The notes: a model not told the origin generated them from the letters alone. DNA of 59,670 bases from an uncultured Bacilli bacterium (GCA_947627805.1 CANQXB010000002.1:1-59670), one strand, 5' to 3'. Shown: positions 36,606 through 53,168, counted from the first letter of the stretch. Numbers and translations are program-made.

Positions 36606-36690
36606 GTTTTCGCAAGTGCGAAAACATTTTTGCACCACAAAACTTGGAAAAATCCCTTATATTATAAGGGGGTTTGTTTTAAAGTGGTGC
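36606..36690 (+). promoter_or_regulatory. Hairpin-rich non-coding DNA: candidate oriT / single-strand structure
   Basis: The perfect palindrome GTTTTCGCAAGTGCGAAAAC lies at 36606-36625. A nested imperfect hairpin follows at 36632-36690: GCACCAC-AAAAC...CCCTTATA-T-TATAAGGG...GTTTT-AAA-GTGGTGC. Confidence 0.4.
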
Positions 36691-36759
36691 CATCTCATAT
36701 CCTGTTTAAAATTATGGAATATAAAAAAACTAAAAATTTATAGAAAAGAGGGTGGTTTT

Positions 36760-37920: not shown

Positions 37921-39382
37921 TGATTCTAAGTTGATTTTTATAACTCATCCATACTATGCAGTAAATAATCCAACAAATAATTTAAAGATTTATAAGAAAG
38001 CTAAAAATTCTGATCATTGGATAGTTATTAATTGTAAAGATAAAAACGATTATAGAAAGAAAATTAAAGAATATATAATTGGTTTTTATGAATATTCCAG
38101 AGATGAAGAAAAAGCCCATACTTCTATTAAAGATTATATAAATAAAAATGAAGATTCATTATTTGATTATTTTATGGGTGGTAAAAAATCTGATGAGGTT
38201 ATGAAAGAAAATCAAATGAAGAGGGAAGAAATGGCAATGCTTAAAAACGGCACTTTTTTGTTAGATAAAGATGTTCCAACTATGCAAAAAAGATGGTGTA
38301 ATTATATAGAAGATAGTAATATACAATTAGCAGTATTATCTTTTAATCAAAACTATGTTGATGAAAATATTTCTATTAAAGAACTTCAAAAGAAAATTGC
38401 AGTTGATGTAATGCCTAAATTTTTAAGTTATTGTGGTTACGAGAATCCAAAAGAGAATTTAGAATGGATAGTGGCATTACATAATGATAGAGATAATAAT
38501 TATCATTTCCACATATCTTGGATTGAGAAAAATAAATGTTTTAGAAACAGAGAAAATAAATTAGCTCATAAAATAAGATTAACATTATCAGATAACGAAA
38601 TAAACTTTTTGAAAAGACAAGCTTCTTTAACTATTGAAAGAAAAAAATTATATACACCAGCATTAATTGAATTAGAAAAAGATTTTAAAAATTTAAAACA
38701 ATATTTTAATCCTAAAGATCAGAACTTTACCTTAAAAAAACTTAAAGATTTGAAATTAGAAGAAAAAATAATTAAACTTGGTTTTTTGTTGGATAAAGTT
38801 AGAGATGGAAAAACAAAATATATTAAATATAATTCTTTACCAAAAAATGATATTGGTAAAGAAATAAGAAAATTAACTTCGGAGATAAAAAAAGAATTGT
38901 TTAATGATAATACATTAAAAAAAGCTAAAGAAGAAATATATAATTCAATTGATAAAATAAATAGTATATTGCTTGATATAGATAGAAGAAATAATATTTC
39001 AGATGTTGGCTTTGAAAAGGCAATTAATAACAAAATGATAAGAGAAAAATTAGATAAGAATGAAAATTATATATTAAATGCAATTGTGAATCATGCTTTA
39101 TATAATTTTAATAATAGAAAGCGAAAAATAAAAAAGGATAATTTTACTTTGGAAGATGCAATAAATCAATTTATTTATGAAGAATATAAAAAAGATTTTG
39201 CTTCCAAAAAGAATAAGACTATTAAGTATCTTAAAATAAATTTATTAAGAAATTTTTTAAAAGGAAAAACTTATAAAAATAAAATAATGTATGCTTTAGA
39301 TCGTTTAAGCTATGAACAAGATAAAGCTGCTGAAGAATTTTATAAAATGTTTTATGAAAATGAAAATAATTATGAAAAGTGA
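37913..39382 (+). CDS. Conjugative relaxase (HUH-type, MobA/VirD2-like nuclease domain)
   Basis: The three-His motif is LHNDRDNNYHFHISW (HxDx..HxH). N-terminal Tyr candidates lie in HPYYAVNN...IYKK. A long Lys-rich helical C-terminus follows. The context is accessory RHH genes plus a T4SS. Confidence 0.7.
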   Translation: MNNDSKLIFITHPYYAVNNPTNNLKIYKKAKNSDHWIVINCKDKNDYRKKIKEYIIGFYEYSRDEEKAHTSIKDYINKNEDSLFDYFMGGKKSDEVMKENQMKREEMAMLKNGTFLLDKDVPTMQKRWCNYIEDSNIQLAVLSFNQNYVDENISIKELQKKIAVDVMPKFLSYCGYENPKENLEWIVALHNDRDNNYHFHISWIEKNKCFRNRENKLAHKIRLTLSDNEINFLKRQASLTIERKKLYTPALIELEKDFKNLKQYFNPKDQNFTLKKLKDLKLEEKIIKLGFLLDKVRDGKTKYIKYNSLPKNDIGKEIRKLTSEIKKELFNDNTLKKAKEEIYNSIDKINSILLDIDRRNNISDVGFEKAINNKMIREKLDKNENYILNAIVNHALYNFNNRKRKIKKDNFTLEDAINQFIYEEYKKDFASKKNKTIKYLKINLLRNFLKGKTYKNKIMYALDRLSYEQDKAAEEFYKMFYENENNYEK

Positions 39383-39605: not shown

Positions 39606-40874
39606 ATGGTTGAAACCGAAAAATTAGAATTTAAAAGACAATCAAATGATTCAATAATTAAAGAAGTAATAGCATTTTGCAATACCAATGGTGGAACAAT
39701 CATAATTGGATATGATGATAATGGAAAAGTCTATGGATTAGAAAATGCAAAAAAAGACTTAGATGCTATTAGTGATAGTATTCATGCTGCAATATCGCCT
39801 GATATTAGTTTTTTAGTATCTTTAAAAATAGCACAAGAGGAAGAAAAAGATATAATAATTATTGAAGTATTGCAAGGTACTAATAAACCATATTATATAA
39901 AATCTAAAGGAATGACTTCTGATGGCGTTTATGTAAGAGTAGGAGCTACTACTCAAAAAGCGAGCGAGTCTTTAATAAAGGAAATGATAGTAGAATCTTC
40001 TGGAATTACCTTTGAAAAAAATTTAAGTATTAATCAAGAATTAACTTTTAATTATACTGAAGATGTCTTTAAAGCAAAAAAACTTAAATTTGGTAAAATT
40101 GAAAAGAAAAATTTAGGACTAATTAATGAAAACGGAAAATATACTAATTTAGCATTATTATTATCTGATCAATGTCCTTATACTATAAAAATGGCCATTT
40201 ATACTAATAATACTAAAACAGAATTTTTAGATAAAAAAGAAACATCTATTGGTAGCATACTTAAACAATTAGAAGAAGCATACGAATATTTAAAAGTAAA
40301 TAATAAAACCAATGCAAAAATAATTGGACTTGAAAGAATAGAAACATTAGAATATAGTGATGAAGTATTAAGAGAATGTTTGCTAAACAGTATCGGGCAT
40401 AGAGATTACGAAATATTTGGAAGTAATTTAGTTCACATATTTAAAGATTGTATTGAATTTTTAAGTTTAGGTGGTTTAGTAAATGGCTTAACAATAGAAG
40501 ATATAAAAATAGGTAGTTCTGCTTCAAGAAATCCAAAATTAATTAATATCTTTCATAGATTGGGATTAGTAGAAGCTTATGGAAGTGGAATACCAAGAAT
40601 TTTAGATATTTATAGAGTTAGTGAAAATCAGCCAAAAATAGTTGTTGCTCCACATAGTTTTTTAATAACAATACCAAAGTTGAAAATTATACCTGAATAT
40701 TCTACAATTATAGAATATTTAAGAACTAATGATGGATTAACTCGTGAAAAAGCCGAAGAATTACTTAATACAAAGAAAGTAAAAACACTATCTATTTTAA
40801 ATAAACTAATAAATATGCAAATAATAGAAAAAACAGGAACTTCTAAAGAAATAATATATAATCTAAAAAAGTAA
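39606..40874 (+). CDS. AlbA_2 (Schlafen-like) domain protein with C-terminal HATPase-like/wHTH region (putative DNA-binding regulator)
   Basis: ETEKLEFKRQ...IIKEVIAFCNTNGGTIIIGYDDNGKVYGLE is an AlbA_2/'divergent AAA' signature. CLLNSIGHRDY and ASRNPKLINIFHRLGLVEAYGSGIPRI are typical of RecG-C-terminal-like 'putative transcriptional regulator' proteins. Confidence 0.7.
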   Translation: MVETEKLEFKRQSNDSIIKEVIAFCNTNGGTIIIGYDDNGKVYGLENAKKDLDAISDSIHAAISPDISFLVSLKIAQEEEKDIIIIEVLQGTNKPYYIKSKGMTSDGVYVRVGATTQKASESLIKEMIVESSGITFEKNLSINQELTFNYTEDVFKAKKLKFGKIEKKNLGLINENGKYTNLALLLSDQCPYTIKMAIYTNNTKTEFLDKKETSIGSILKQLEEAYEYLKVNNKTNAKIIGLERIETLEYSDEVLRECLLNSIGHRDYEIFGSNLVHIFKDCIEFLSLGGLVNGLTIEDIKIGSSASRNPKLINIFHRLGLVEAYGSGIPRILDIYRVSENQPKIVVAPHSFLITIPKLKIIPEYSTIIEYLRTNDGLTREKAEELLNTKKVKTLSILNKLINMQIIEKTGTSKEIIYNLKK

Positions 40875-40887
40875 ATATTTATTAAAA

Positions 40888-40919
40888 GTTGCCAAATAAT
40901 TTGGTGGCTTTTTATTTTG
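40888..40919 (+). terminator. Rho-independent terminator
   Basis: GTTGCCAAA-TAA-TTTGGTGGC stem (with G-U pairs) followed by TTTTTATTTT. Confidence 0.6.
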
Positions 40920-40939
40920 TGTATAAAGGGGGATTTGAT

Positions 40940-41722
40940 ATGAGTATTTTACAAGAATATGAAGAAATAAAAAAAGAAATAGGTAATAGAAAATTCAATA
41001 TGATTGAAGATTATTTAGATGAGATATGCCCACCAAGAGAAATGAAAAAGTATGAAAAAGAATTAGCAAAAATTAATGGAGAAGATTTTTATTATTGGTT
41101 AAAACAAAAAGAAAAATTAGAAAAGAAATATGGTGTACTATTTTTAAGTGATGTTCTTTATAAAAAAGAAGAATGGGAAAAATTTGAAAAATGGTATAAA
41201 GAACAAAATAAAGATAAAGAAATAAATATACTAAATATTTGGTGGTTATCAGATCATGATATGGTAAGATGTAATGCAATTATTAAAATTAATAATATAG
41301 AGATTGCTAATATTGTTGCTAGTTATTATGCAGCAGATTTTTATAAATTCGAGGATGACAATGAAATTATTAATATAAAAGATGTTCTTAAAAATTTAAT
41401 ATTAGATGATTTAGATAAATATTTAAAACTACCAAAAGTTAGTGAATGTTCAAGATTATTACAAAGTATCTATGATGATGTATGTGCTTCTGATTCTTCG
41501 ATGTGTCATATAACAGAAGAAGATTGGGAAAATTTTTATTCTGATGATTATACAAACGAAGATTTTGAAATTCTAAAATCAGAAGTCGAAAAATTTGGCT
41601 TAGAAAATGTAGTAAGTATAAATAAAGGAGAATACAAAATTATAGGATATGGTAATTTAGAAACAACGTTTAATGATGATAGAAATTTAAATAAAGAAAA
41701 ATCAGAGGAAAAGACAATATGA
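40940..41722 (+). CDS. Hypothetical acidic protein
   Basis: AAAGGGGG lies 7 nt before the ATG at 40940. The track start at 40889 (TTG) lies inside the terminator. Confidence 0.55.
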   Translation: MSILQEYEEIKKEIGNRKFNMIEDYLDEICPPREMKKYEKELAKINGEDFYYWLKQKEKLEKKYGVLFLSDVLYKKEEWEKFEKWYKEQNKDKEINILNIWWLSDHDMVRCNAIIKINNIEIANIVASYYAADFYKFEDDNEIINIKDVLKNLILDDLDKYLKLPKVSECSRLLQSIYDDVCASDSSMCHITEEDWENFYSDDYTNEDFEILKSEVEKFGLENVVSINKGEYKIIGYGNLETTFNDDRNLNKEKSEEKTI

Positions 41723-42108
41723 TTAGAATAGAAAAGCTTGATAATTCAATTTATCATCATAAATATAAAGAAATATATAAATTAATTTTTGAAGCAGATA
41801 TTGATACTATTACTGACCATTCTTATTGGATGAAAATGGGAAAAAAAGATTATGTTGAAGTTAATATGCCATTATGGATAATAATGGAAAGTAAAAAAGT
41901 AAATAAAAGAATATGGATATGCCATGATTTTGGACAACTATCAATTACAACAGCACAATTAGATTTAGATATAAATAGTAGTGCATATCAAGAAAGTTAT
42001 AAATATTATTATTTTAAAAATCAAAGAGATCTAGTTGATGAATTAAAAAAAATAATAAAACCTTGTTTAGCAAAAGGACAAGATAAAGAAGGTGAATTAG
42101 AATTATGA
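41719..42108 (+). CDS. Hypothetical protein
   Basis: 129-aa ORF with ATGA start/stop overlaps on both sides. Confidence 0.55.
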   Translation: MIRIEKLDNSIYHHKYKEIYKLIFEADIDTITDHSYWMKMGKKDYVEVNMPLWIIMESKKVNKRIWICHDFGQLSITTAQLDLDINSSAYQESYKYYYFKNQRDLVDELKKIIKPCLAKGQDKEGELEL

Positions 42109-42962
42109 CAAACATTAAACAACTTTGTAAAAAAATTGATAGCGAGTTTAAAAAATGTGATATAAGAAATTATAGTGCTTTGGAGGATATTTGCCAAAAT
42201 AATAATATAAAAGTTTTTGATTTTTTGAAAAATGTTGGATATCGTAGTTATTTTAATTATAAAGATTCTTTGAAAAATTTATCGAGAAAAGAATTACCGA
42301 TAAATGAAATCTTAAGTAAAATTCCTAAATCAATAAAAGAATATCTTGATTATCCTGTTGAAGATATAAAAAAAGAAATCCAAAAAAGTAATTCGTTATG
42401 TGATTCACAAGATGATTTAGTATATGCTGATAATGAAATTTGTTATTATGATTGTCATGATGGGGATTATGTATATATAGATACTCATGAAGCTATTGGG
42501 ATAAAAATAGAAACCGATAGTTCATATTTTAAAGGTAAAGTTTTATATGTTAATAACTTGTCAGCTAATTTATTATTAGTTGATGATAATAAAACTTTAT
42601 ATAACGAAATATGTATAAAATATAATTTATATGATTGTATAAAAGAAAATTGCTATATAGATGAAAATTTTAAGAAAGATATAGATGATGTACAAGAAAT
42701 TAATGATTATAAGATTCTAACTAGTTGTATTGATTATCAAGTATTAAAAGAAAATCTTTCAGAAGAAAAACTAAAAAAAATAGAAAAATGTCTTGAAAGT
42801 TTTCAATACTATGAAAGTATTTATGATGATGGTGATATTGATATTATAGGGGACTATGAAAGAAATTATGGTAATGGTTATATAATTGATTGGTATGAAG
42901 GCTTGATGGAAACTGATGAATTTATTGAATCACAAAATTGTGATGTAGAAAATGAAATATAG
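42105..42962 (+). CDS. Hypothetical acidic protein
   Basis: 285-aa Asp/Glu/Cys-rich ORF with an ATGA overlap upstream. Confidence 0.55.
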   Translation: MTNIKQLCKKIDSEFKKCDIRNYSALEDICQNNNIKVFDFLKNVGYRSYFNYKDSLKNLSRKELPINEILSKIPKSIKEYLDYPVEDIKKEIQKSNSLCDSQDDLVYADNEICYYDCHDGDYVYIDTHEAIGIKIETDSSYFKGKVLYVNNLSANLLLVDDNKTLYNEICIKYNLYDCIKENCYIDENFKKDIDDVQEINDYKILTSCIDYQVLKENLSEEKLKKIEKCLESFQYYESIYDDGDIDIIGDYERNYGNGYIIDWYEGLMETDEFIESQNCDVENEI

Positions 42963-42973
42963 AAGAAATAAAA

Positions 42974-43129
42974 ATGAATAATATTTTATATAAATTTAAA
43001 GTAATGTTAGAAGGTGTATATTCAAAATATGGAAAGTATAATAAAAGCAATAGATTAGATTTTGCATTTAATGAAATGAAAATGGAAAGAAAAGAATTTA
43101 AATTAGAAGAAACTGAAATTAGTTTATAA
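42974..43129 (+). CDS. Small protein (51 aa), paralog of 44023..44163
   Basis: My own translation is MNNILYKFKVMLEGVYSKYGKYNKSNRLDFAFNEMKMERKEFKLEETEISL. It shares the core YSK.NRLDF.FNEMK....FKLE with the second copy. It is below the track cutoff. Confidence 0.45.
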   Translation: MNNILYKFKVMLEGVYSKYGKYNKSNRLDFAFNEMKMERKEFKLEETEISL

Positions 43130-43142
43130 TGGGGGTGTAACA

Positions 43143-44021
43143 ATGAAAGAGAAGTTATGTTATTTAGTAGATATTGTCGAAAACAATAAAAATTGTGTAG
43201 TTTTAAAAGTTAAAGATAATAAAGAAATGGATTTAATTAAATTAGGTTGTTTTGATGGAGATGAACGATTAATTAGATTAACAAAAGGGAAAAATCATAC
43301 TTGTACTGTTTTCTATAATGATAATAGAAAGCCATTTTCTTGGGAGTGGGGAGCAAGTGGTTTTACTTTGGTAAGTGATAATACTAATAAAAAGGGTAAA
43401 TTGATACAAAAGTGTATTACTGAAGATTTTGATATTTATGTAGGAGAAGATGATTCTAAAATAATGGAATCATTATATATAAAGTCATTAGATGATGTAA
43501 AAAATAGAAAACATAAAATAGAAATTATGTATTTTAAAAATAGCTATGATGTTGTAGTACATAAAGATAATGAATATTATAATGCATTTTTAAATGTTAA
43601 CGAAGCAATAAAACATTTTCAAGATTTAAATTATAAAGTGGATTTTAAAAATAAGTATGTTGCAGGAACAGGCTGTATTGTTGAAGAATATAGCATTCAA
43701 AAAAATAAAGAATTATTAAATCATAAAGAAGGAGCATATTATCTTTCTATAACAAATACTAACAAATTAAATGATATTGATTCATTTACTGTTGCAAGAG
43801 TAATAGATGATATAAATTGTGTTGAACTTCATTATAATGGTGGAAAAGCAACAATTGAATATGGCATTAAAATTAATGATGATGAATGGGAAAATGAAGT
43901 TGAAGAAGTAGATTGGTTTAATAAAGAAATGTCAGAAGAAGATATAGAAAAAAAATTATGGGAATTATTTAATGAAAAATTTGAAGCTTTTTTAAATACT
44001 GATGATGGAATGGAAATTTAG
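43143..44021 (+). CDS. Hypothetical protein; C-terminal ~80-aa domain shared with 44803..45789
   Basis: GGGGGTG lies upstream. The C-terminus FTVARVIDDINCVELHYNGGKATIEYGIKINDDEWENEVEEVDWFNKEMSEEDIEKKLWELFNEKF aligns with that of the paralog. Confidence 0.6.
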   Translation: MKEKLCYLVDIVENNKNCVVLKVKDNKEMDLIKLGCFDGDERLIRLTKGKNHTCTVFYNDNRKPFSWEWGASGFTLVSDNTNKKGKLIQKCITEDFDIYVGEDDSKIMESLYIKSLDDVKNRKHKIEIMYFKNSYDVVVHKDNEYYNAFLNVNEAIKHFQDLNYKVDFKNKYVAGTGCIVEEYSIQKNKELLNHKEGAYYLSITNTNKLNDIDSFTVARVIDDINCVELHYNGGKATIEYGIKINDDEWENEVEEVDWFNKEMSEEDIEKKLWELFNEKFEAFLNTDDGMEI

Positions 44022-44022
44022 T

Positions 44023-44163
44023 ATGGGTAGAGAATTGATAAATCGAATAACTAGGAAAAAAGATGGAATATATAGTAAAAGTAATAGATTAGATTTTGTT
44101 TTTAATGAAATGAAAGAAGATGATAAAACATTCAAATTAGAAGATGAAGAAAAAGTCTTATAA
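44023..44163 (+). CDS. Small protein (46 aa), paralog of 42974..43129
   Basis: My own translation is MGRELINRITRKKDGIYSKSNRLDFVFNEMKEDDKTFKLEDEEKVL. It starts 2 nt after the stop of the upstream gene. Confidence 0.45.
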   Translation: MGRELINRITRKKDGIYSKSNRLDFVFNEMKEDDKTFKLEDEEKVL

Positions 44164-44183
44164 AAAGGAGATGAAGATATAGT

Positions 44184-44810
44184 ATGAATAATGAAGTATT
44201 AACTATTTGTGGTGAAAGTTTAAATGTATTTAAAAATATAGAAATGGCTAAAGATTTTTATAAAATTTGTTATATGTATTCTGAAGGATTTGAAAGAGAA
44301 AGATATGCCAATGTTTTATTAAAATTAGATTATTATGATGTTGTGGATGATGAAGCTACAAGTTATTGTGATAGTATATCAATTCAATTAGATAAAAATA
44401 ATTTTATTAATTACGATGTAGAGCATTTATCAATTTCTGAAACTATTGATAATTATAAAGAAAAATTAAAACCAGTTTTGGAAGTGTCAAAAGAATATAA
44501 TATAAATTTTTTATCAAAGATTCCTTTTGAAGATTTTGGTAGTGATGATTCATCCTTAACAACACGTAGTTTTTCCAACTATTATAAAGATTTACTAAAT
44601 AAATTCAATATAAAAATTGAAAAAATAAATACTGATGAAGTATCTGATGGGAAATATAAAATGAATATAAACGATAGTGTTATTGTTGATATTAAATCTT
44701 GGGATGATTTTGAAACGGTAATAAATAATATAAATTCTATAATTGATTTATTAAAAGATAATAATTTAAAAATTGAAGATAATAAGGGGGAATTAGAACT
44801 TTATGACTAA
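44184..44810 (+). CDS. Hypothetical acidic protein
   Basis: 208-aa ORF with AAGGAG upstream. Its 3' end overlaps the next gene by 8 nt. Confidence 0.55.
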   Translation: MNNEVLTICGESLNVFKNIEMAKDFYKICYMYSEGFERERYANVLLKLDYYDVVDDEATSYCDSISIQLDKNNFINYDVEHLSISETIDNYKEKLKPVLEVSKEYNINFLSKIPFEDFGSDDSSLTTRSFSNYYKDLLNKFNIKIEKINTDEVSDGKYKMNINDSVIVDIKSWDDFETVINNINSIIDLLKDNNLKIEDNKGELELYD

Positions 44811-45789
44811 AAAAGAAATTAATAATGCACAAGAAAAATTAGATATGCCTATAAAAAGTTGGTATATATCAAAATATCCTTCTGATGAGTTAGGTAAAAC
44901 ATTATCTCCAACAGTAACTTTTCTTGATTTAAATAATATTTTAAATTCTGGGAAAGGAGATGTTTATACTTTACTCGGTGGTTATGCTGATACTACTATT
45001 CGAGAAAGATGTTTTGAAAAATTATGTGAATTAACAAATCAAAATTCTTATGATATCTATAGTAAATGGATAAAATATGATAACAGCCAAAAAGATGCTT
45101 TAAACCTTTTATACAGGATTAATTTAAAAGAATTTAAACACAATTTTGAAGGCAGTGATTTTGATGGATTAGATTATATAAAAGATTACATAACGCCAGA
45201 TTTAGAAGAGTTGTATTATGAAGTTTTAGAATACAATGAAATATATGCAAATGGTTGGACTATTAAAGATTTATTTAAAAAGGGAAAAAAAGATAAATAT
45301 TGGAGTGATAGAGCACATAATTTTATAAAAAAACATCATGTTCCCAAAAAAGACTATGATGAATATATAAAATATTATGATGATTATTGTGTTCTTAGGA
45401 CTAAACTATTAGATGCTCTGGGTTTATCTGAATACTTAGATAGTGATGTATTTATTGATGAAGTACCAGTACATGGCTTTTTAAATAGTGAAACGATAAC
45501 CAAAGTTAAAGATATAGAAATTGGAAATTCTTATACACTTGCTAGAGTAAATAATTTTGGTAATTGTGTAGAACTTCATTATTATTCTAATGGTGAAGCT
45601 AAAGTAGAATATGGATATAAATATACTCATGATTATTGGGAAAATGAAATTGAAGATGCAGAGTGGTTTAATTTAGAAATGACAGATGAAGAAATTCAAA
45701 AAAAATTATATCAACTTTTTAAAGATAAGTTTGATATAAAAGAAAAAGAACAAAATAGAGAGGATTTAGGGATTGATTATGACAGATAA
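44803..45789 (+). CDS. Hypothetical protein; C-terminal domain shared with 43143..44021
   Basis: The C-terminus YTLARVNNFGNCVELHYYSNGEAKVEYGYKYTHDYWENEIEDAEWFNLEMTDEEIQKKLYQLFKDKF aligns with that of 43143..44021. Confidence 0.6.
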   Translation: MTKKEINNAQEKLDMPIKSWYISKYPSDELGKTLSPTVTFLDLNNILNSGKGDVYTLLGGYADTTIRERCFEKLCELTNQNSYDIYSKWIKYDNSQKDALNLLYRINLKEFKHNFEGSDFDGLDYIKDYITPDLEELYYEVLEYNEIYANGWTIKDLFKKGKKDKYWSDRAHNFIKKHHVPKKDYDEYIKYYDDYCVLRTKLLDALGLSEYLDSDVFIDEVPVHGFLNSETITKVKDIEIGNSYTLARVNNFGNCVELHYYSNGEAKVEYGYKYTHDYWENEIEDAEWFNLEMTDEEIQKKLYQLFKDKFDIKEKEQNREDLGIDYDR

Positions 45790-46135
45790 AGAAATTTTAG
45801 CAGAATTAAAAAAATCTTATGAATATTTAAGTGATATTAGAGAAAATGGTTGTGTTGATCATTGTAATGGTCAGTTAAATAGAAAAATGATAGATATGAT
45901 AAATATTGCAAAAAGTAATATTGAAGATAGCTATTTTGAATTTTATAAAACATTAGATAGAGAAAATTTAAGAGTAAAATCATTAGAAAATAATGAAAAA
46001 GTTTATATTGCGAGAACTATTGACGGTGATTATGAAATAGGTGAAGATTCAGATAATTTAACTTGTATTGATGCCGATTATTTTTGGTATGATGATATAG
46101 ATTTTTTAAATGAGGTTTTAGATTATGAAATATAA
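45779..46135 (+). CDS. Hypothetical acidic protein
   Basis: The ORF overlaps the upstream stop. I prefer the ATG at 45779 over the TTG at 45773. Confidence 0.5.
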   Translation: MTDKEILAELKKSYEYLSDIRENGCVDHCNGQLNRKMIDMINIAKSNIEDSYFEFYKTLDRENLRVKSLENNEKVYIARTIDGDYEIGEDSDNLTCIDADYFWYDDIDFLNEVLDYEI

Positions 46136-46592
46136 TGGTAAAAATAAATATTATGTAAAAATTTGGATAACAGAAGAAGATAGAAATCAGGGATTTGCCG
46201 ATGATTACTATAAAGATTTTAATAGTTTAAAAGAAGCTATTAAAGAAATGAGAAAGTATTTTTATGATGGAAATTGTGTATGTGTTGAAATATACAATTC
46301 TAATAATGAACCTGTATATAATTGTGATAAAGATTCAGAAATGTTTTATGCGAGTACATATAATATAGAAAAAGTTAGTGAAAAAATAGTAAGAAAATAT
46401 ATTGATAATTGGGTTAATAAAAAAGAATTACCAACGAATGAAAAATTAATTTATTGTTATGATGGAAATAAGTATATAGCTGTAGATAATACAACAGATA
46501 ATTGCTTTGTAGAAGAGTTTGACAGTGAAAAAGATGCTTTTGCGTGGTTAATAAAGGCATATGAAAAAGATGATATGGATATTGAAAAATGA
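46125..46592 (+). CDS. Hypothetical protein; its C-terminal segment is duplicated at 48846..49022
   Basis: 155-aa ORF that overlaps the upstream gene. Its C-terminus is NKYIAVDNTTDNCFVEEFDSEKDAFAWL. Confidence 0.55.
   Translation: MKYNGKNKYYVKIWITEEDRNQGFADDYYKDFNSLKEAIKEMRKYFYDGNCVCVEIYNSNNEPVYNCDKDSEMFYASTYNIEKVSEKIVRKYIDNWVNKKELPTNEKLIYCYDGNKYIAVDNTTDNCFVEEFDSEKDAFAWLIKAYEKDDMDIEK
46467..46537 (+). repeat. 71-bp near-identical DNA repeat (copy 1; copy 2 at 48906..48976)
   Basis: aataagtatatagctgtagataatacaaca(gat/ggc)aattgctttgtagaagagtttgacag(t/c)gaaaaagatgc. 68 of 71 nt are identical by my count. Confidence 0.8.
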
Positions 46593-46608
46593 TGGAGGTG
46601 ATAACTTA

Positions 46609-46977
46609 ATGAATAGAGATGATATAAAGTGGTTGGATTTTTTTGGTGGTGTTAATACTATTATTATAAGAAACAAATTAGAGTTTAATAAATTTTATAA
46701 TTTTATGAGTAACCTTGGATTACAAGGCCTTTTTCATAATGATAAAACTTTTGAATCATGGCAGCATTTAGCAGAAATAAATGGTTATGTATCAGATTAT
46801 ATTATTTTTGAATATCAACCGTGTAAAGGAATGACTTTTGGCTATTCAATAGAAACATCAAAAGATTGGTATGATAAAGAACCGTTAACTGTTGATGTAT
46901 TAGATGCTTTTTATTCTAATAGTACATTATTTAAAAATAAAAATGAAATTAATAAAGATTTAGAAATAGAAATATAG
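46609..46977 (+). CDS. Hypothetical protein
   Basis: GGAGGTGA lies 8 nt before the ATG at 46609 (MNRDDIKWLDFF...). The track start at 46561 overlaps the previous gene. Confidence 0.55.
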   Translation: MNRDDIKWLDFFGGVNTIIIRNKLEFNKFYNFMSNLGLQGLFHNDKTFESWQHLAEINGYVSDYIIFEYQPCKGMTFGYSIETSKDWYDKEPLTVDVLDAFYSNSTLFKNKNEINKDLEIEI

Positions 46978-47101
46978 AAAGGAGAAATGAATAGTAATAT
47001 GAATCTAAATGTAAAAGTAATAGTTGAAAATACAATCTTACGTTTAAGAAATAAGTCATATAATCAAGTAAGAAATTTAGATAAGGAGGTTGAACGATAA
47101 A

Positions 47102-47962
47102 ATGGGGCAATATTATAAATTTTTAAATTTAGATAAAAAGCAAAAGTGTGAAAGAGCAAAACCTATGTTAAAACTCACAGAACATTCTTATTTAGGAAAT
47201 GATTATTGTGATGATATTTTATCTTTACTTGCAAACGAATGGAAGGGTGATAGAGTAATTCATGTTGGAGATTATGCAGAAGGAAATGATGGAACCACAA
47301 CAGAAAAATTAATAGATAAACTTGAAACCGAAAATAATTTACTTGATGAAAATTTAACTGTATATGATTGGGGAAACTACTTTACAAATGTTGCACCTAA
47401 AAAAGATATAACTAATATAAGGTATGTTTATAACCTAGACAAGAAAGAGTTTGTCGATCTTTTAAAGCAACCTGTTCAATGGTTTTACTATGAAAAAAAT
47501 AATATACATGCAGTAAAATTCAATTCTTTTGCTCTTCTAATTGGATGTGGTAATGAACAAGGCGGAGGGGATTATTATACTATAAACAAAAATAGAATTG
47601 GATTATGGGCTGGAGATAAGTTTGTATCATCTATTGAAAAAATTAAAGATTATGAAACTTTTACAGAAACAAAATATGTTTTTAATGAAATGTTACCAAT
47701 TAAAAATAAAATAAAAAATTATAATGAACAAGGTGAAAGAAAAATTTTATTAGATGAAGGAGTGGAATTAAAGCATTACTTAGACTATATTCAAAAATAT
47801 GAAAAAATTAATTTTTCAAAATTAAAATTATATAAAGAAAATTTATTGGATGATGAATACAAGTATTTAAATGGTATATTAAATAAGTATATTGATAAAG
47901 AATTTAAAAAAGTGGAATTAAATGAAGATTCAGAAATAGAAACTGATAAAGAATTAGAATAA
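47102..47962 (+). CDS. Hypothetical protein
   Basis: AAGGAGG lies upstream of the ATG at 47102 (MGQYYKFLNLDKK...). The track start at 47090 is a TTG. Confidence 0.55.
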   Translation: MGQYYKFLNLDKKQKCERAKPMLKLTEHSYLGNDYCDDILSLLANEWKGDRVIHVGDYAEGNDGTTTEKLIDKLETENNLLDENLTVYDWGNYFTNVAPKKDITNIRYVYNLDKKEFVDLLKQPVQWFYYEKNNIHAVKFNSFALLIGCGNEQGGGDYYTINKNRIGLWAGDKFVSSIEKIKDYETFTETKYVFNEMLPIKNKIKNYNEQGERKILLDEGVELKHYLDYIQKYEKINFSKLKLYKENLLDDEYKYLNGILNKYIDKEFKKVELNEDSEIETDKELE

Positions 47963-47978
47963 ATAGAAAGAAGTGAGA

Positions 47979-48230
47979 ATGATGGAATCTAATCGAGTGG
48001 CAATGGAAAAACATTTCGATATGTTTGCTACTGTTTTAGTGAAAGAAGTTATGGATATTCCTATTGAATGGGTTAGTGATGAAAGACTAGAAGAAATCAA
48101 AAAATGTATATTTTATAATGAAACTAAAATTTTTAATCAAAGTTTTGTTAAAAAATTAAAAGCAATTGAAGAAAAAATTGAAATTGAAAAAGGTTTGAGA
48201 GAAGCACCTACAGTAGAAAAGACATTGTAA
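47979..48230 (+). CDS. Hypothetical small protein
   Basis: ORF of about 83 aa. The start is uncertain (GTG 47973, ATG 47979 or ATG 47982). Confidence 0.45.
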   Translation: MMESNRVAMEKHFDMFATVLVKEVMDIPIEWVSDERLEEIKKCIFYNETKIFNQSFVKKLKAIEEKIEIEKGLREAPTVEKTL

Positions 48231-48248
48231 AAAGAGGGGGAATGTAAA

Positions 48249-48842
48249 ATGCGTTACAAAGGTAAAATAAAGAAATTAAATCATATAGTTGTTTCGGATC
48301 CTTATTATAATAAAGGCGTTTTGTGCAGATATGAAATTGAAAATTTAAATGAAAAAGATTGGATAGTAAATTTAGATATTATTCGTAAAAAAGAAAAAAT
48401 AGAAGAATTCGATATAAGTTATACCGATTTTTTTATGCTAATCAAAAAAGAAGATAATTTATGTAATTTAATTAAGGATGGAATATCTTATTTAAATGAT
48501 ATTAACTTAAAAGAATATCGAATTGGAATGGATACTGCTTGCGTAGCATTAGGAATAAACGACAATGCAAAAGAAATAATAAATTCCCAAGATGAATGGC
48601 AACCTAGTTGTTCAATTAGAACTGGAACAGATGGATTTTTTGGGGAAGTTAAAGAAGGCAAAGATAAAAATAATAATCTTTGTTTTGTTTATATATATGG
48701 AAGTATTGATGATGATATGGATTATGAATTAGATGATATAAAAGATTATTTAGTAAAACAATTTGAAATAACAGAATTAGAAATTGAATCAAAAAGCTCA
48801 AAAAATGAAGTTGAAAATGCTATCAGTGTAGAGGAGGGATAA
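48249..48842 (+). CDS. Hypothetical acidic protein
   Basis: AGAGGGGG lies upstream. The 197-aa ORF ends with the tandem stops TAA TAA. Confidence 0.55.
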   Translation: MRYKGKIKKLNHIVVSDPYYNKGVLCRYEIENLNEKDWIVNLDIIRKKEKIEEFDISYTDFFMLIKKEDNLCNLIKDGISYLNDINLKEYRIGMDTACVALGINDNAKEIINSQDEWQPSCSIRTGTDGFFGEVKEGKDKNNNLCFVYIYGSIDDDMDYELDDIKDYLVKQFEITELEIESKSSKNEVENAISVEEG

Positions 48843-48845
48843 TAA

Positions 48846-49022
48846 ACGAATTTTGAAGAATTATTTGGTAAATATGATACGAAACCAATTATTAATTATG
48901 ATGAGAATAAGTATATAGCTGTAGATAATACAACAGGCAATTGCTTTGTAGAAGAGTTTGACAGCGAAAAAGATGCCTTAAAGAATTTATCAAATGCGTA
49001 TGAAAACGGAAAAGAATTGTAA
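48846..49022 (+). pseudogene. Start-less remnant of a domain paralogous to the C-terminus of 46125..46592
   Basis: 58 open codons lie in the same frame as 48249..48842, directly after TAA TAA. They encode ...IINYDENKYIAVDNTTGNCFVEEFDSEKDALKNLSNAYENGKEL. I found no in-frame ATG, GTG or TTG. Confidence 0.5.
48906..48976 (+). repeat. 71-bp near-identical DNA repeat (copy 2; copy 1 at 46467..46537)
   Basis: See copy 1. 68 of 71 nt are identical by my count. Confidence 0.8.
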
Positions 49023-49039
49023 AGGAGTTGATGAAATAT

Positions 49040-49771
49040 ATGCCAAATTGGACACAAAATAAAGTAACATGTAATAAAAGATTAGCAAATATACTTTTAA
49101 CAAAAAAAGATGGAAAATATATTTTAGATTTTAACAAATTAGTGCCTATGCCTAAAGAATTAGATTTACCAACCGTGGGTATTGAGAATGAAGCAGTTGC
49201 TTGTTATTATTTATCATTAAACTCTAAAGATAGGGACTATGTTGAAAAGATTTTAAAAAAAACTATTGAAGGTTGGTGTGGCAACTATTGGAATAGATAT
49301 GAAGAAACAATTAATAAATATAAAAAAGATTCAAAAAGTTTAGAAAGTGCTAAAAGTAATTTCAGTGGAAATTTTGATAACTATAATGTTGAGTTTAATT
49401 CACTTGAAGAGTTAGGAAAACAATATTTTGAAAACATAAAAAATTATAAAAGTTCTGAATGGTATGACTGGCGTTTTAGAAATTGGGGAACCAAATGGAA
49501 TGTTGAAGAAAAAGTTGATGTTAATGTTGTTTCTGATGATTGTTATGAAATTTCTTTTTTAACTGCATGGTCTTCGCCAGTAGGAATAGTAATAAAATTT
49601 AGCGAAAATTGTAAAGATGGTGAGTTAAATTGGGAATTTGTTAATGAGGATTATGATGGTTATCATCATCTAAAATTAGAAGATGGTAAAATTGTGGATT
49701 ATGTAACAGATTATCAAAATGAATATGAAGAAGATTCAGATAATGAAAACGAATCTTCTTATATTAATTAG
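49040..49771 (+). CDS. DUF1281-like protein (MPNW... N-terminus, NWGTKWN motif)
   Basis: MPNWTQNKVTC..., RNWGTKWNVEE and FLTAWSSP match my recollection of the plasmid-borne DUF1281/YubB-like family. The start is uncertain (49028, 49031 or 49040). Confidence 0.5.
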   Translation: MPNWTQNKVTCNKRLANILLTKKDGKYILDFNKLVPMPKELDLPTVGIENEAVACYYLSLNSKDRDYVEKILKKTIEGWCGNYWNRYEETINKYKKDSKSLESAKSNFSGNFDNYNVEFNSLEELGKQYFENIKNYKSSEWYDWRFRNWGTKWNVEEKVDVNVVSDDCYEISFLTAWSSPVGIVIKFSENCKDGELNWEFVNEDYDGYHHLKLEDGKIVDYVTDYQNEYEEDSDNENESSYIN

Positions 49772-49794
49772 TAAAAAGTAAGGGGATAAAGATT

Positions 49795-50187
49795 ATGGAA
49801 CTAATTACAAAAGAAATAGAAGAAAAATTTAAAAAATATCCATTAGGAAGTCAAGATGGATTATTAGGAGATTCTAAAGTTGTGGTAAAGTATTTTAATC
49901 CTGTTGGAGTTGGCACATGGTTTATCACAGAAGGTAATAAATTAGAAAATGGCGATTATATAATGTATGGATATTGTCATTTAGGAGATGATGATATGGC
50001 GGAATTTGGGTATGTAAAGTTATCTGAATTAAAAGAAATAAAATTGCCTTTTGGAATGGAAATTGAAAGAGACCTATATTTACCAGATGATTGCACATTA
50101 AAAGATGCGATGGAAAGTATAGATATTTCAATACCTGATTATTTTAATAAAGATTTTTTAGATAATATAGAAGAAACAGAAATATAG
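49795..50187 (+). CDS. DUF2958-like protein
   Basis: KYPLGSQDG...VVVKYFNPVGVGTWFITEG....MYGYCHLG.D.AEFGYVKLSELKEI matches my recollection of the DUF2958 signature, which is common on conjugative elements. Confidence 0.6.
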   Translation: MELITKEIEEKFKKYPLGSQDGLLGDSKVVVKYFNPVGVGTWFITEGNKLENGDYIMYGYCHLGDDDMAEFGYVKLSELKEIKLPFGMEIERDLYLPDDCTLKDAMESIDISIPDYFNKDFLDNIEETEI

Positions 50188-50317
50188 AATGAAAAAGATA
50201 TATTACCAGCCATTTTAAGAAAAGATTTAAGTAAAAATCTTGATATGAAATTAGAATGGAAAAATATGAATTTGATGTTGGAAAAGATAAGGATAATATG
50301 GAGGAGGAATTGGAAAA

Positions 50318-51127
50318 ATGAAAGATTATCTTAATAGAAAAGAATATCCTAATGGTGATATTACTGTTAAATTAGTAAAAATGGGAATGGATATTGACGA
50401 TACAAGAAATCATAGAGTTAGAGGAATTATTCAAACAGAAGATAATAAAAATTTATTTATAGAAATTTTACTAGGAAGAAGAATTCCAAAAAAATATACT
50501 TCTATGACATCTAAAGAATACTTGGAAAAATATCCAAATGAAGAATACATTTGTATAAATGGATGTTTTCGAGTAGATATTCCAGAAGATTATTATAAAA
50601 GTTATACTTCTGAATTTTCTAAATATAAACGTTATAGTTTTAATGAATATAAGCACAACAAGGAAAATATAATTAAAGTTTTACAAATTTTTAATAAGAA
50701 CATTAAAGATGTTGAACTTGTAGATCATAATTATATGGATGAATATTGTAATGAAAATGGTTTTTATGAATTATATGACGAAAGGTTAGAACATACCTTA
50801 AAACCTATTAAAATTATCAATATTTATCATAATGAAATTATTATTGAATTGGAATATCGTTGCATAAACTATGACAAAACTAAAACCTATACTGAAAATA
50901 TACAAAGAACCTATGACTTAGATTTAGATAAATTAAATAAGAAATTCGGTTCAAAAGAAATGAAACTATTATTAAGTGATTATGAAAGGAAATTAGAAAA
51001 AAAGAACAACTTATTCAAAAATGAGAAAAAAGAAATGCAAAAAGAATTAGAAGATAAAAATACTGTGCAAATATCAAATCAACAAGTAGAAGAAGATAAA
51101 GAAGATTTAGATATTAATTTTGTCTAG
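50318..51127 (+). CDS. Hypothetical protein
   Basis: 269-aa ORF with GGAGGAGG upstream. No motif recognised. Confidence 0.55.
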   Translation: MKDYLNRKEYPNGDITVKLVKMGMDIDDTRNHRVRGIIQTEDNKNLFIEILLGRRIPKKYTSMTSKEYLEKYPNEEYICINGCFRVDIPEDYYKSYTSEFSKYKRYSFNEYKHNKENIIKVLQIFNKNIKDVELVDHNYMDEYCNENGFYELYDERLEHTLKPIKIINIYHNEIIIELEYRCINYDKTKTYTENIQRTYDLDLDKLNKKFGSKEMKLLLSDYERKLEKKNNLFKNEKKEMQKELEDKNTVQISNQQVEEDKEDLDINFV

Positions 51128-53168
51128 TTTTTATTTAGAAGGGGGGAAAAATATTCTGGAAATACAAGATTTTGGAGAGAAAATTGGAGGAGCTAAAAAG
51201 GATCTATGGAAAGAACGAGGACTATCTATTGCTGATTTAGTTGGAATGAATGATGCTGAAAAAATAAAACTAATAAAAAAAGATAATGTTTGGAAAAGGC
51301 CAAATTATCAAGAAATGGTTGATAATGGCATGCCTGTTAGAGTAGCTTATTTTATAAAATTGATAAGAGATGCAATTCCAACCAAACCTATTATTACCTA
51401 TCGTGATAGAACTCCAGAATTAATTATGAATAAACAAGAAGGATACGTGGAGTTTGTCGGAAAAATAAGAGATTATGCCATGAATTTATCTAAAGAAGAT
51501 GAAATATTTAATTTTTATAATGATTTTTTAAGTAAGTATGTTACATTTAATAATCCATATTCAGTTTTAAATTCTTCTGAAGCATATGATTATATCAACC
51601 AAAAAATGTTAAATTTACTTAATATTAAAAATTTTTTGAGAATTGATAATGAGATTATAAAAAATCAATTTTGTTTTACTGATGAAGAAAAAATATTATC
51701 AAAATTCGAAATTTTTTATTATTCAAAAGACAACACTAAATTTACAAAGTATAATGATAGAAATACAATAGAGCATAAAGAAAGATTTGTAAAATATTAT
51801 ATTTATCCCAAAGAACAATTTAGTAATCCAGATAATTGGAAAGAAAACACATTTTTTATTTGGAAAAATGGAGAAATAATAAAAAATAATTTAAATAGTA
51901 TAGATGATGCTAAAAAGTATATATTAGATAATTATGAAGTTAGTCCAAAAGTAAATACTAGAAATAGAAAAAAGAAATTTATTCCAAAACAACTAAAAAA
52001 TATTTCTCGTGATGGCGAAGATGTAAGAAATGGAAAAGATATAACTGGAGAAGATATGTTGAAAAGTTTTATTTTTAAAGGTGGAGAGTTTGGTAATTGG
52101 TTGAATGATAATGATAGACACCAATCATTAAATTATGGATTTGAAGCACTAATGGATTTAAGCAAGGCATTAGCTATTTCTCCAGAAGATATATCATTAG
52201 GAAATAGATTGTCTATAGCTTTTGGTTCTCGTGGTAGTGGTTCTGCTTTAGCTCATTATGAACCTGATAGAGAAGTAATAAATATAACAAAAATGAGAGG
52301 TGCAGGCAGTTTAGCTCATGAATGGGGACATGCTTTAGATGATATTGTAGGAAAAAAATTAGGTCTTAATGGTTTTTTAACAGAAAGATATAACTCTACA
52401 GATCCAATTTTAAAAGAAATGAAAGATATTATTGAAACAATGCAATATAAAACAGTTTGTAATAAAGAAACAACTAAGTTGCAAAGAGAGGAATATGAGA
52501 AGGAAATAAATAAAGCAAAAAAATATATTGATTCATTTTTTCCGGAAAAATATCTTACTGAAAATCAAAAAAGCCAAAAAGAAAGTTTAGTACAAAAACT
52601 AATAGATAATTCAGAAACATCATCTAATAATTTAATTGATTATATTTCAAAAGGGATAGGTAATAAAGAGATTGATGAATTATCAAAATTACGATCAGAA
52701 ACGGTAGGAAAAGTTATTCCTAAAATTGAAAGAATTAATTTAGCATATTTACAAAATAATATAAATATAAAGGAAAAAAATATAGGAAGTTCTCAAAAAA
52801 TAAAAACGGATTTTTATAAAAATTCAATTAAATTTGATGATTATTTTTCAAAGACCGATAATGGATATTGGCAAAGCAAAGCAGAAATGTTTGCAAGAGC
52901 ATTTGCTTGTTATGTATATGATAAGTTAGGATATAAAAGTGATTATTTATGTGGACATGCAAATAAAGTAATTAATTCAGTAATAAATGATAAAGGTGAA
53001 ACAGAAGTTATTAAAGCATTTCCAATAGGGGAAGAAAGAAAAGCAATAAATGAAAAAATAGATACTTTTATAAAAGTTTTAAAAGAAAAAGAAATATTAC
53101 ATGATTATAATGAAAACGTTAATATATATGATGAAAAAAAAGAATCAGAAAATGAAATAATCTTATAA
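51120..53168 (+). CDS. Zincin-like (HExxH) domain protein resembling modules of conjugative-element 'polyvalent' proteins
   Basis: The N-terminal motif is IQDFGEKIGGAKKDLW. The metallopeptidase-like site is GSLAHEWGHALDD. The start codon is uncertain. GAAGGGGGG at 51138-51146 is followed by ATT (51153) and CTG (51156), and the TTG at 51120 has no SD. Confidence 0.6.
   Translation: MSSFYLEGGKNILEIQDFGEKIGGAKKDLWKERGLSIADLVGMNDAEKIKLIKKDNVWKRPNYQEMVDNGMPVRVAYFIKLIRDAIPTKPIITYRDRTPELIMNKQEGYVEFVGKIRDYAMNLSKEDEIFNFYNDFLSKYVTFNNPYSVLNSSEAYDYINQKMLNLLNIKNFLRIDNEIIKNQFCFTDEEKILSKFEIFYYSKDNTKFTKYNDRNTIEHKERFVKYYIYPKEQFSNPDNWKENTFFIWKNGEIIKNNLNSIDDAKKYILDNYEVSPKVNTRNRKKKFIPKQLKNISRDGEDVRNGKDITGEDMLKSFIFKGGEFGNWLNDNDRHQSLNYGFEALMDLSKALAISPEDISLGNRLSIAFGSRGSGSALAHYEPDREVINITKMRGAGSLAHEWGHALDDIVGKKLGLNGFLTERYNSTDPILKEMKDIIETMQYKTVCNKETTKLQREEYEKEINKAKKYIDSFFPEKYLTENQKSQKESLVQKLIDNSETSSNNLIDYISKGIGNKEIDELSKLRSETVGKVIPKIERINLAYLQNNINIKEKNIGSSQKIKTDFYKNSIKFDDYFSKTDNGYWQSKAEMFARAFACYVYDKLGYKSDYLCGHANKVINSVINDKGETEVIKAFPIGEERKAINEKIDTFIKVLKEKEILHDYNENVNIYDEKKESENEIIL

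Follow-up and report, generated by a model that had tools for sequence, protein, structure and literature searches.

A hypervariable block of small acidic genes between a relaxase-like gene and the coupling-protein gene of an integrative conjugative element from an uncultured Bacilli bacterium

Organization and gene content of the block

The DNA analysed here is a stretch of 59,670 nucleotides from an uncultured Bacilli bacterium (GCA_947627805.1, CANQXB010000002.1:1-59670), which is referred to at its full length as the window. Pfam scans of nearly all its open reading frames (ORFs) show an integrative conjugative element (ICE) of about 50 kb, of the Gram-positive type and with a GC content of about 24%. 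The subject of this study is the 13.5-kb block at 39606–53168, which lies between the gene of a relaxase-like protein (37913..39382) and that of a VirD4-type coupling protein (T4CP; 53800–56106, + strand, E = 3e-53), and which an earlier note on this DNA had proposed to be an island of establishment or anti-defence genes. Comparison with related loci shows that the block is a hypervariable accessory module, whose constituent modules differ between relatives in their order and in how they are fused or split, and a conserved sequence upstream of the relaxase-like gene predicts that it enters the recipient early.

The block contains 19 ORFs, all on the + strand, and one more (53201–53800) stands ahead of the coupling-protein gene. 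The ORFs are 51 to 682 aa in length, mostly 51–328 aa, and are packed with a median gap of 12 nt, 8 overlaps, ATGA-type junctions and a coding fraction of 0.96, which agrees with the single-strand, dense arrangement described earlier. The uniform orientation is, however, not a hallmark of the block, since 65 of the 67 genes in the window are on the + strand and the neighbouring type IV secretion system (T4SS) region is packed in the same way. Antisense ORFs within the block are all ≤81 aa, and no homologue of them was found in related loci. The claimed acidity of the block proteins is evident in the median pI, which is 4.79 compared to 6.59 in the rest of the window (Mann-Whitney p = 1.7e-4), and in the net charge per 100 aa, which is −5.8 compared to 0.0 (p = 3e-5).

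Genes are designated below by their first coordinate, and all those of the block are on the + strand. To the right of a gene for an AlbA_2 protein at the left end, the first product is a 260-aa acidic protein (40940..41722), which belongs to the scaffold of recurring families and is present in most relatives. Its family has 161 homologues, all hypothetical, and the AlphaFold2 model is confident (pLDDT 89.6, pTM 0.76) and consists of three domains; it has no significant fold match in PDB or BFVD, and none to ArdA or Ocr. The N- and C-terminal halves of this protein occur separately (315 representative clusters) and in fusions, and in the loci examined the family was met solely in the slot between the relaxase and T4CP genes. 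The genes that follow encode a 129-aa ORF (41719..42108), for which no homologue was found in related loci, a 285-aa acidic protein (42105..42962), a 51-aa ORF (42974–43129), a 292-aa protein (43143–44021), an ORF of 46 or 53 aa (44023 or 44002 to 44163), a 208-aa protein (44184–44810) and a 328-aa protein (44803–45789). The 292-aa and 328-aa proteins have a C-terminal domain of about 85 aa in common (49% aa identity, E = 1e-20). The two short ORFs are remnants of a paralogous module, in which 43024–43129 and 44058–44163 are 75% identical at the nucleotide level, and relatives have versions of 148–151 aa or fused versions in the region 42974..44163.

Further to the right are a 118-aa protein (45779–46135), a 155-aa protein (46125–46592), which matches phrog_27897 (5e-11) and Gp31 of Clostridium phage phi3626, a 122-aa protein (46609–46977), a 286-aa protein (47102–47962) with 274 hypothetical homologues and a weak similarity to phrog_3156 and mycobacteriophage proteins, a protein of 75 or 85 aa (48003 or 47973 to 48230), and a 197-aa protein (48249–48842), which is a scaffold member in 9 loci. 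Ahead of the next gene, a startless sequence of 125 nt (48882..49006) is 82% identical to the 3' end of the 155-aa gene (46443–46567) and looks like a relic of module shuffling. It corresponds to the C-terminal domain of the 155-aa protein, and Gp31 of phage phi3626 contains this domain as well. These duplications, one at the amino acid level and two at the nucleotide level, confirm that the block contains internally duplicated modules, as had been claimed.

The right part of the block contains the families that could be recognized. The product of 49040–49771 has the NWGTKW motif and matches phrog_12644 (3e-17), which lends weak support to its earlier assignment as DUF1281-like, but its match to DUF1281_C (2.7e-4, 21.2 bits) is below the Pfam cut-off of 22.8 bits. 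One protein from the slots of relatives, probably the 28%-identical homologue in locus L009, matches DUF1281_C at 1.1e-9. DUF1281/YubB is family 27 of those enriched in leading regions (Samuel et al. 2024 supplement, PMC11541004). The next gene (49795–50187) encodes a DUF2958 protein as proposed (2.1e-17, 63.9 bits against a cut-off of 21), and no functional account of this family was found in the literature. It is followed by the genes of a 269-aa protein (50318..51127) and a 682-aa protein (51120..53168), the latter of which contains a HEWGH zincin domain (CLCA_X-like HExxH, residues 296–417, 2.1e-32), LPD1 (4.1e-17) and a weak LPD5. The 682-aa protein matches giant phage proteins (phrog_616, profile of 2793 aa, E = 4e-39) and resembles neither ArdC nor any PDB sequence. 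Judged by its domains, it is a module of the polyvalent-protein type, in accordance with the earlier assignment, and it is the only block product that combines at least two effector or LPD domains with a position beside relaxase and T4SS genes.

Essentially every block ORF was searched against Pfam, NCBIfam and PHROGs, and ten larger proteins, including the AlbA_2 protein, were searched with PADLOC. For most window ORFs, no family was matched in Pfam, NCBIfam or PADLOC, and none of the nine larger block proteins other than AlbA_2 (the 40940 to 51120 families) matches any PADLOC model, which bears out the expectation that most members represent undescribed families. The NCBIfam matches to ApyA, mCpol, QWxxN and YPO3983 fell far short of the respective cut-offs and were discarded as noise. 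The products with phage homologues are those of 46125, 47102, 49040 and 51120.

The relic fragments and very short paralogous ORFs (42974–43129, 44002–44163 and 48882–49006), as well as the ORF at 41719–42108 that lacks a homologue in related loci, could also suggest that the block is an AT-rich spacer whose ORFs are decaying or have no function. This explanation is highly improbable and is largely refuted by conservation: for 15 of the 20 ORFs, homologues with 28–87% identity occupy the same slot in relatives, the databases contain hundreds of homologues, one family yields a confident AlphaFold2 model, and the coding fraction is high. The block ORFs can be regarded as real genes because their homologues are conserved and the modelled family reaches a pLDDT of 89.6.

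The slot between the relaxase and coupling-protein genes in related loci

The comparison set consisted of 28 related loci from species-representative genomes and closer metagenomic relatives. The backbone identity in relatives is 70–87% for VirB4 and 57–75% for T4CP. Identical or near-identical copies of the window were found in metagenome assemblies only, and the metagenome-assembled genomes (MAGs) of the relatives are labelled uncultured Bacilli, Tenericutes or Clostridium sp. CAG:762; the element family is an undescribed one from uncultured low-GC gut Bacillota. The 199-aa backbone protein encoded at 53201–53800 (+ strand), which is 84% identical in the closest relative, and T4CP form the right border of the variable slot.

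Within the slot, 51 protein families were counted in about 14 loci, and 29 of them are singletons. The slot genes of the relatives are all on the + strand, and the slot measures about 5 kb in the shortest case and more than 10 kb in the longest. A recurring order of 40940, 42105, 43143, 44184, 45779, 46125 and 48249 can be recognized, with the 53201 backbone gene at its end; to judge from the sequences compared, the scaffold is made up of about eight fast-evolving acidic families, into which the DUF1281/YubB-like, DUF2958 and LPD1/zincin modules appear to have been inserted. In the closest relative, the relaxase is 81% identical, the block is 8 kb in length and lacks 9 of the window ORFs, and the block proteins in common are 32–71% identical, compared to 81–84% in the flanking backbone.

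Six types of fusion of the window ORFs occur in relatives: DUF2958 with the body of 42105, 50318 with 44803 (L009), 46609 with the C-terminal half of 40940 (L014), the C-terminal domain of 43143 with 42105, 45779 with 46125 (L025), and 44002 with 44184. When 123 non-redundant slot proteins of the relatives were pooled and scanned with Pfam, the families detected were ArdC (ArdcN + MPTase-PolyVal), an N6/N4 methylase, an ImpB-type polymerase, HU, DpnD/PcfM, DUF4313, SUFU, AbiEii, HTH_3, NUDIX, DUF2958 (five members) and DUF1281_C. Genuine genes of establishment or anti-restriction are thus present in some relatives, namely an ArdC gene (L025:18911–19894, 1.8e-27 to R388 ArdC), a DpnA-like orphan methylase gene (L029:17114–18151), a Y-family polymerase gene (L010:16914–18413) and those of HU and PcfM-like proteins. 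L025:19860–20756 was also considered as an ArdC candidate and gave no match.

In two related loci (L031 and L032), which are two copies on one MAG chromosome (CP091726.1), the genes are broken into many short ORFs whose protein fragments are 40–87% identical to those of the window. These may be decayed copies, or may result from long-read frameshift errors or a different genetic code.

The constancy of the scaffold order between the relaxase and T4CP genes, in elements whose relaxases are 55–81% identical, raises the question of whether the scaffold families are accessory factors of the transfer machinery, namely cytoplasmic parts of the relaxosome, parts for docking at T4CP, or regulators of conjugation. 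The confinement of the 40940 family to this slot in the loci examined and the backbone-like conservation of 53201–53800 (84% identity) would also be expected of such factors. However, presence and absence vary widely, with many singletons, fusions and relic fragments; several relatives arrive at T4CP after only 5–8 genes; phage homologues exist; and known cargo and anti-restriction genes are interspersed. We consider a role as machinery parts rather improbable.

The gene at the left end of the block differs from the others. It encodes a protein with AlbA_2 (Schlafen-type, 4.5e-22) and HATPase_c_4 (3.6e-15) domains (39606..40874, + strand), and is flanked by a promoter-like site at 39558–39586 and a terminator-like 13-bp hairpin at 40884–40912. 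Upstream of it are two exact copies of TGAACGCATCGTGAACGCA on the + strand (39461–39479 and 39527–39545), which contain four TGAACGCA boxes, compared to 0.33 expected, and are unusually GC-rich for this DNA. They are a candidate operator and may be bound by the C-terminal DNA-binding domain of the AlbA_2/HATPase_c_4 protein itself. The gene is absent from all relatives, and its product gives weak PADLOC matches to pAgo-associated models. In the closest relative, an Abi_2 gene (L033:9571–10506) takes its place, and an HU gene directly follows the relaxase gene in at least two others (L005:7624–7899 and L035:11669–11944). The position immediately 3' of the relaxase gene is an insertion hotspot for defence-type cargo. 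The sequence features point to an independent, separately transcribed inserted cassette, which would carry defence-type cargo, not anti-defence. The domain assignment of the earlier note is thus retained, whereas membership in an anti-defence set is called into question by the separate transcription unit, the absence from relatives and the pAgo-type matches.

The AlbA_2 gene and its weak pAgo-associated matches, the Abi_2 gene in the same position of the closest relative, and the AbiEii and SUFU-like proteins in other relatives could also be interpreted as signs that the block is cargo of benefit to the host, including an anti-phage defence island. For the block as a whole, such a role is quite unlikely: the nine larger non-AlbA_2 proteins have no PADLOC match, the block proteins do not contain the enzymatic or sensor domains that are typical of defence systems, and the AlbA_2 gene is a separate transcription unit. 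This interpretation is credible for the AlbA_2 cassette only.

Predicted origin of transfer and order of entry

The gene at 37913..39382 (+ strand) encodes a 489-aa protein of an unannotated family with more than 200 members, all annotated as hypothetical. In this family, Tyr14 and Tyr27 do not vary, and H190-x-D192-x5-H198-x-H200 varies little or not at all, a pattern that fits MOBP motif III (HxDxxxxxHxH) with an N-terminal Tyr. In the hhalign comparison with IncP TraI, the sole aligned stretch is motif III (TraI residues 104–121), where WIVALHNDRDNNYHFHISW is aligned with RVSAVHHDTD-NLHIHIAI. The best sensible Foldseek matches of the AlphaFold2 model (pLDDT 78) are weak, being TrwC (E = 0.21, probability 0.66) and pCU1 TraI (E = 0.30). 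No relaxase-family match was obtained from Pfam (including Relaxase PF03432), NCBIfam, PHROGs or PDB sequences. A KamB match in NCBIfam, far below the cut-off, was rejected as spurious, and the influenza NS1 matches, which were the only ones returned when PDB sequences were searched with the relaxase profile, were dismissed as chance. A tblastn search of 72,556 PLSDB plasmids with the relaxase-like and 40940 proteins gave no match. The earlier placement of the block between a relaxase and a coupling protein is firm on the T4CP side (3e-53); on the other side, no relaxase family is matched, and the motifs, the weak fold similarity and a conserved origin of transfer (oriT) suggest that the protein is a relaxase. 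Current profile libraries miss this relaxase family and this type of oriT.

The oriT features are located in the gap after the primase-adjacent gene, about 1.2 kb upstream of the relaxase gene, where the + strand carries a perfect hairpin, a composite hairpin and then GTGGTGCCATCTCATATCCTGTTT, in this order. The first is inverted repeat 1, GTTTTCGCAAGTGCGAAAAC (36606..36625), with a perfect 9-bp stem, whose core TTTCGCAAGTGCGAAA is kept in nearly all related loci. The second (36632..36690) consists of GCACCAC and GTGGTGC around inverted repeat 2 (CCCTTATATTATAAGGG, about 36654–36671). The DNA fold of 36590–36720 has an energy of −22.2 kcal/mol, with z = −4.9 relative to shuffled sequence. On the 3' side of the conserved inverted repeats is the invariant CATATCCTG|TT (36695–36705, + strand), which includes the predicted nick motif TATCCTG|T (TATCCTGT, 36698..36705); this motif corresponds to the MOBP consensus YATCCTG|Y and is invariant in relatives. 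The predicted nick region on the + strand reads GTGGTGCCATCTCATATCCTGTTTAAA. The 11-mer CATATCCTGTT has a single occurrence, on the + strand and in the same place, in 29 of 32 loci, and the whole oriT architecture is kept in relatives with relaxases that are merely 38–74% identical. The experimentally defined MOBP nick region is (C/T)ATCCTG|(C/T), preceded by an inverted repeat (PMC3772185). The nick is predicted to occur after G36704 of the + strand, because ATCCTG with a 5' inverted repeat constitutes the MOBP nick region and is conserved in relatives. Of the alternatives, a MOBQ-type nick, GTGCGCCCT, is absent, and the other YATCCTGY, at 42351, was attributed to chance, as the motif occurs twice compared to 3.6 times expected and this copy has no conserved context.

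Between the predicted nick and the relaxase gene are four small genes on the + strand, encoding a 47-aa membrane peptide (36760–36900), a 136-aa acidic protein (36915–37325), a 117-aa protein (37344–37697) and a protein of about 76 aa (37690–37920), the last of which has a possible ribbon-helix-helix N-terminus as seen by eye and no database match. Their order is kept in relatives at 35–70% identity, and no Pfam match was found for any of them; they are presumed to encode relaxosome accessory proteins.

To check the strand logic, we turned to an annotated IncP plasmid, which was located with the RP4 nicked-strand (oriT) oligonucleotide. In that plasmid, the traK-traL-traM leader side is 3' of nic, and traJ, traI and traG are 5' of nic on the other strand. 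In the window, the relaxase gene and the block are 3' of nic on the nicked strand, with the block 2.9–16.5 kb away. From this arrangement we infer that the relaxase gene and the block are the first-transferred DNA and that the transferred strand (T-strand) is the sense strand of the block genes, so that the predicted nic places the block early in the order of entry, as the earlier note had supposed, and not last. If the T-strand is the sense strand, the block genes would not be transcribable from the incoming single strand. Samuel et al. (2024, PMC11541004) describe leading regions of the F type, in which the entering single-stranded DNA (ssDNA) is the template of early transcription from ssDNA promoters, a mechanism that would not apply to the block. 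The intergenic DNA of the block contains no unusual, Frpo-like or ssDNA-promoter-like hairpin, and its fold z-scores range from −0.5 to +0.7.

A sense T-strand, from which transcription of ssDNA in the recipient would be impossible, leads to another possible explanation, in which the block products are effectors made in the donor and translocated through the T4SS, i.e., a disaggregated polyvalent array that is exported with the DNA and acts before the incoming strand is expressed. The location of the block in one apparent operon between the relaxase and T4CP genes, the LPD1, LPD5 and zincin domains with their matches to giant phage proteins, and the free fusion and splitting of the modules are consistent with such export. 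Protein delivery has been proposed for such domains, including solo forms beside T4SS genes (Iyer et al. 2017, PMC5512222). The C-termini of the proteins also bear on this explanation. Proteins ending in Glu-[Ile/Leu/Met/Val] (Glu-[ILMV]) account for 7 of 18 in the block and 0 of 49 elsewhere in the window, and in relatives (L005–L029) such ends are found in 41% of slot proteins compared to 16% of backbone proteins (p = 7e-7). Three genes of the variable slot end with the identical GAAATATAG. Possible explanations of such an end are a tail akin to a signal peptide, a joint formed by recombination, or a constraint of translational coupling.

On the other hand, no secretion signal can be defined from the sequence. 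The Glu-[ILMV] bias is also raised in the backbone (16% compared to a dipeptide background of 3%), is concentrated in translationally coupled genes and may reflect the junction sequence, and most block proteins are outside the known polyvalent domains. The tail was set aside as a secretion signal and is given here as no more than a lead, since its enrichment is real but is confounded by translational coupling and by junctions like GAAATATAG. Donor-made effectors are, in our view, an unlikely explanation of the block. The more specific idea of a polyvalent protein in pieces, exported via the VirD4-type T4CP, maybe through the Glu-[Ile/Leu/Met/Val] C-terminus, and offsetting an untranscribable strand, is likewise unlikely. 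If this idea were true, a Gram-positive ICE would be solving the problem of early defence by delivering proteins, drawn from about ten effector families that are as yet undescribed.

Upstream of the oriT, the element contains the genes of a SpaA/thioester adhesin (22913–25981), a single-stranded DNA-binding protein (ssb, 25962–26384), which is upstream of the T4SS genes and in the part predicted to enter last, VirB4 (29300–31801), an M23 hydrolase between VirB4 and the primase, and a CHC2/Toprim primase (35102–36067), which is followed by small genes; a 560-aa protein beside VirB4, which has no Pfam match, is a putative VirB6-like protein by its position. The placement of ssb is opposite to that in F-like plasmids, where ssb is a leading-region gene. 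On the other side of T4CP are a sortase gene and then the gene of a large serine recombinase (57020–59005), and in a distant relative the element stops directly past the recombinase, with CotE and VanW genes beyond. The recombinase has a LysM match at residues 320–362 (E = 6e-8) within the region matched by Pfam Recombinase (340–432), which is an odd pairing for a DNA recombinase.

Other observations concern the left part of the window. The product of a 122-aa ORF (503–871) and the last 120 residues of that of a 522-aa ORF (1035–2603) are 79% identical; both products end in a hydrophobic stretch with a basic tail, as in sortase substrates, a sortase gene (2627–3397) is next to them, and the pair may be a duplicated or truncated surface-protein gene. 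The segments 3588–5704 and 6230–8309 contain a gene of a PD-(D/E)XK transposase-like protein, that of a C-5 cytosine methylase, which lacks an obvious partner endonuclease, and, next after these, the only two minus-strand genes of the window. One of the two encodes a 453-aa protein, and the other a repressor-like protein with a double HTH_3, which could be the regulatory switch of the element if this part belongs to it.

Interpretation and comparison with known systems

The interpretation we prefer is that the block is an early-entering, hypervariable module for establishment or counter-defence, composed of shuffled small modules and located next to a hotspot for defence cargo beside the relaxase gene; the chances for and against it appear to be evenly balanced. 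It is based on the position, variability and modularity of the block, the sharing of families with phages and the known genes in the slots of relatives, in place of any direct match in the window. In the proposed process, the relaxase would nick the + strand after G36704, and this strand would enter 5' to 3', so that the relaxosome genes and then the block would reach the recipient first. Expression of the block would follow synthesis of the complementary strand, since the T-strand would be the sense strand. The block would be expressed as one long operon from an oriT-proximal promoter that is unrepressed in a naive recipient; a long operon is probable because the + strand from 40912 to 55900 contains no terminator-like site except one weak 5-bp hairpin, which is within an ORF at 46713. 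The products would neutralise or evade nucleic-acid-targeting defences of the recipient and handle the incoming DNA, and the phage homologues of 46125, 47102, 49040 and 51120 fit functions that are common to invading elements.

Several points weigh against this interpretation. No window ORF matches an anti-restriction, anti-CRISPR or SOS-inhibitor family in Pfam, NCBIfam or PHROGs, and the modelled 40940 family has no structural relative in PDB or BFVD. If the T-strand is the sense strand and ssDNA-promoter-like hairpins are absent, the main advantage of a leading position is lost. An element of about 50 kb enters in 1–2 min, and the position alone gives little head start. The ssb (25962–26384) and primase (35102–36067) genes are in the last-entering part, divergence is as rapid in the relaxosome accessory proteins as in the block, and the conserved scaffold order could equally mean a role in transfer itself. 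Moreover, the nick site is a prediction from sequence, and the fold match of the relaxase is weak (Foldseek E = 0.2–0.3). The proposal of an anti-defence arsenal is thus supported by the predicted early position, the hypervariable slot and the ArdC and methylase genes in relatives, but not by a match of any window ORF to an anti-defence family. With regard to the suggestion that the small acidic proteins are DNA mimics, the block ORFs gave no ArdA or Ocr family match, and the one modelled family (40940) has no PDB match.

If the preferred interpretation is true, about a dozen undescribed, fast-evolving families from abundant uncultured gut Bacillota would be candidates for counter-defence or establishment functions, and an early-entry accessory island could sit on the relaxase side of oriT with its sense strand transferred. 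Surveys that assume a lagging relaxase would misassign such an island. The same effect may explain why some MOB types showed no enrichment and were excluded by Samuel et al. (2024, PMC11541004). Mobilome surveys that use hidden Markov models of relaxases would overlook or mis-orient elements of this relaxase family, and the fact that the family and its oriT type are missed by profile libraries affects the quality of gut mobilome annotation. The block is thus both a candidate source of such functions and a caution on assumptions of polarity.

Leading-region islands are already known (Samuel et al. 2024, PMC11541004), as are polyvalent proteins and the solo forms of early-phase domains (Iyer, Burroughs, Anand, de Souza & Aravind 2017, PMC5512222), and nothing here contradicts the current understanding. 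Like the leading-region islands, the block consists of small co-oriented genes beside oriT in what is here predicted to be the first-transferred DNA, includes many uncharacterised families, DUF1281/YubB among them, and shows rapid gene turnover, and ArdC and orphan methylases are found in the slots of its relatives. It differs in that the relaxase gene is on the leading side, whereas that literature assumes a lagging relaxase; in that its genes are sense on the predicted T-strand, with no Frpo-like hairpins; in the lack of a recognised anti-defence gene in the window; and in its host, which is a Gram-positive ICE instead of an enterobacterial plasmid. Unlike the leading regions of F and ColIb-P9, which contain ssb, psiB and ardA, the element has ssb in its lagging part.

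The resemblance to polyvalent proteins (PMC5512222) lies in the LPD1, LPD5-like and zincin domains of 51120–53168, in the setting between relaxase and T4SS/T4CP genes, in the homologues inside giant phage proteins, and in the concatenation of modules in varying combinations, here seen in relatives. In contrast to polyvalent proteins, the modules are here mostly separate small genes instead of one giant polypeptide, most of them are outside the described LPD and enzymatic domains, and the window contains no methylase, SNF2 helicase or ArdC-N domain of that kind.

With IncP (RP4-type) plasmids, the element has in common an inverted repeat followed by ATCCTG, the core of the nick motif, and genes 3' of nic that are sense on the T-strand, as are traK, traL and traM of the IncP leader operon. 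The IncP relaxase operon is, however, on the other side and strand and is transferred last, whereas the relaxase gene here follows nic on the same strand. In Tn916, orf18 (ArdA) is immediately downstream of the relaxase gene orf20 and oriT. The function of ArdA is cited in PMC9154091. Tn916 is thus also a Gram-positive ICE with an anti-restriction gene just 3' of oriT and the relaxase gene, oriented as the conjugation genes; it has a Rep_trans (MOBT) relaxase and a single ArdA, in contrast to the HUH-type relaxase predicted here, with its MOBP-like nic and 13.5 kb of unknown families. Compared to the known islands, what is new here is the predicted location on the same side of oriT as the relaxase gene, the predicted transfer of the sense strand, the setting in a Gram-positive ICE whose putative relaxase escapes profile searches, and a gene content in which almost all families are undescribed.

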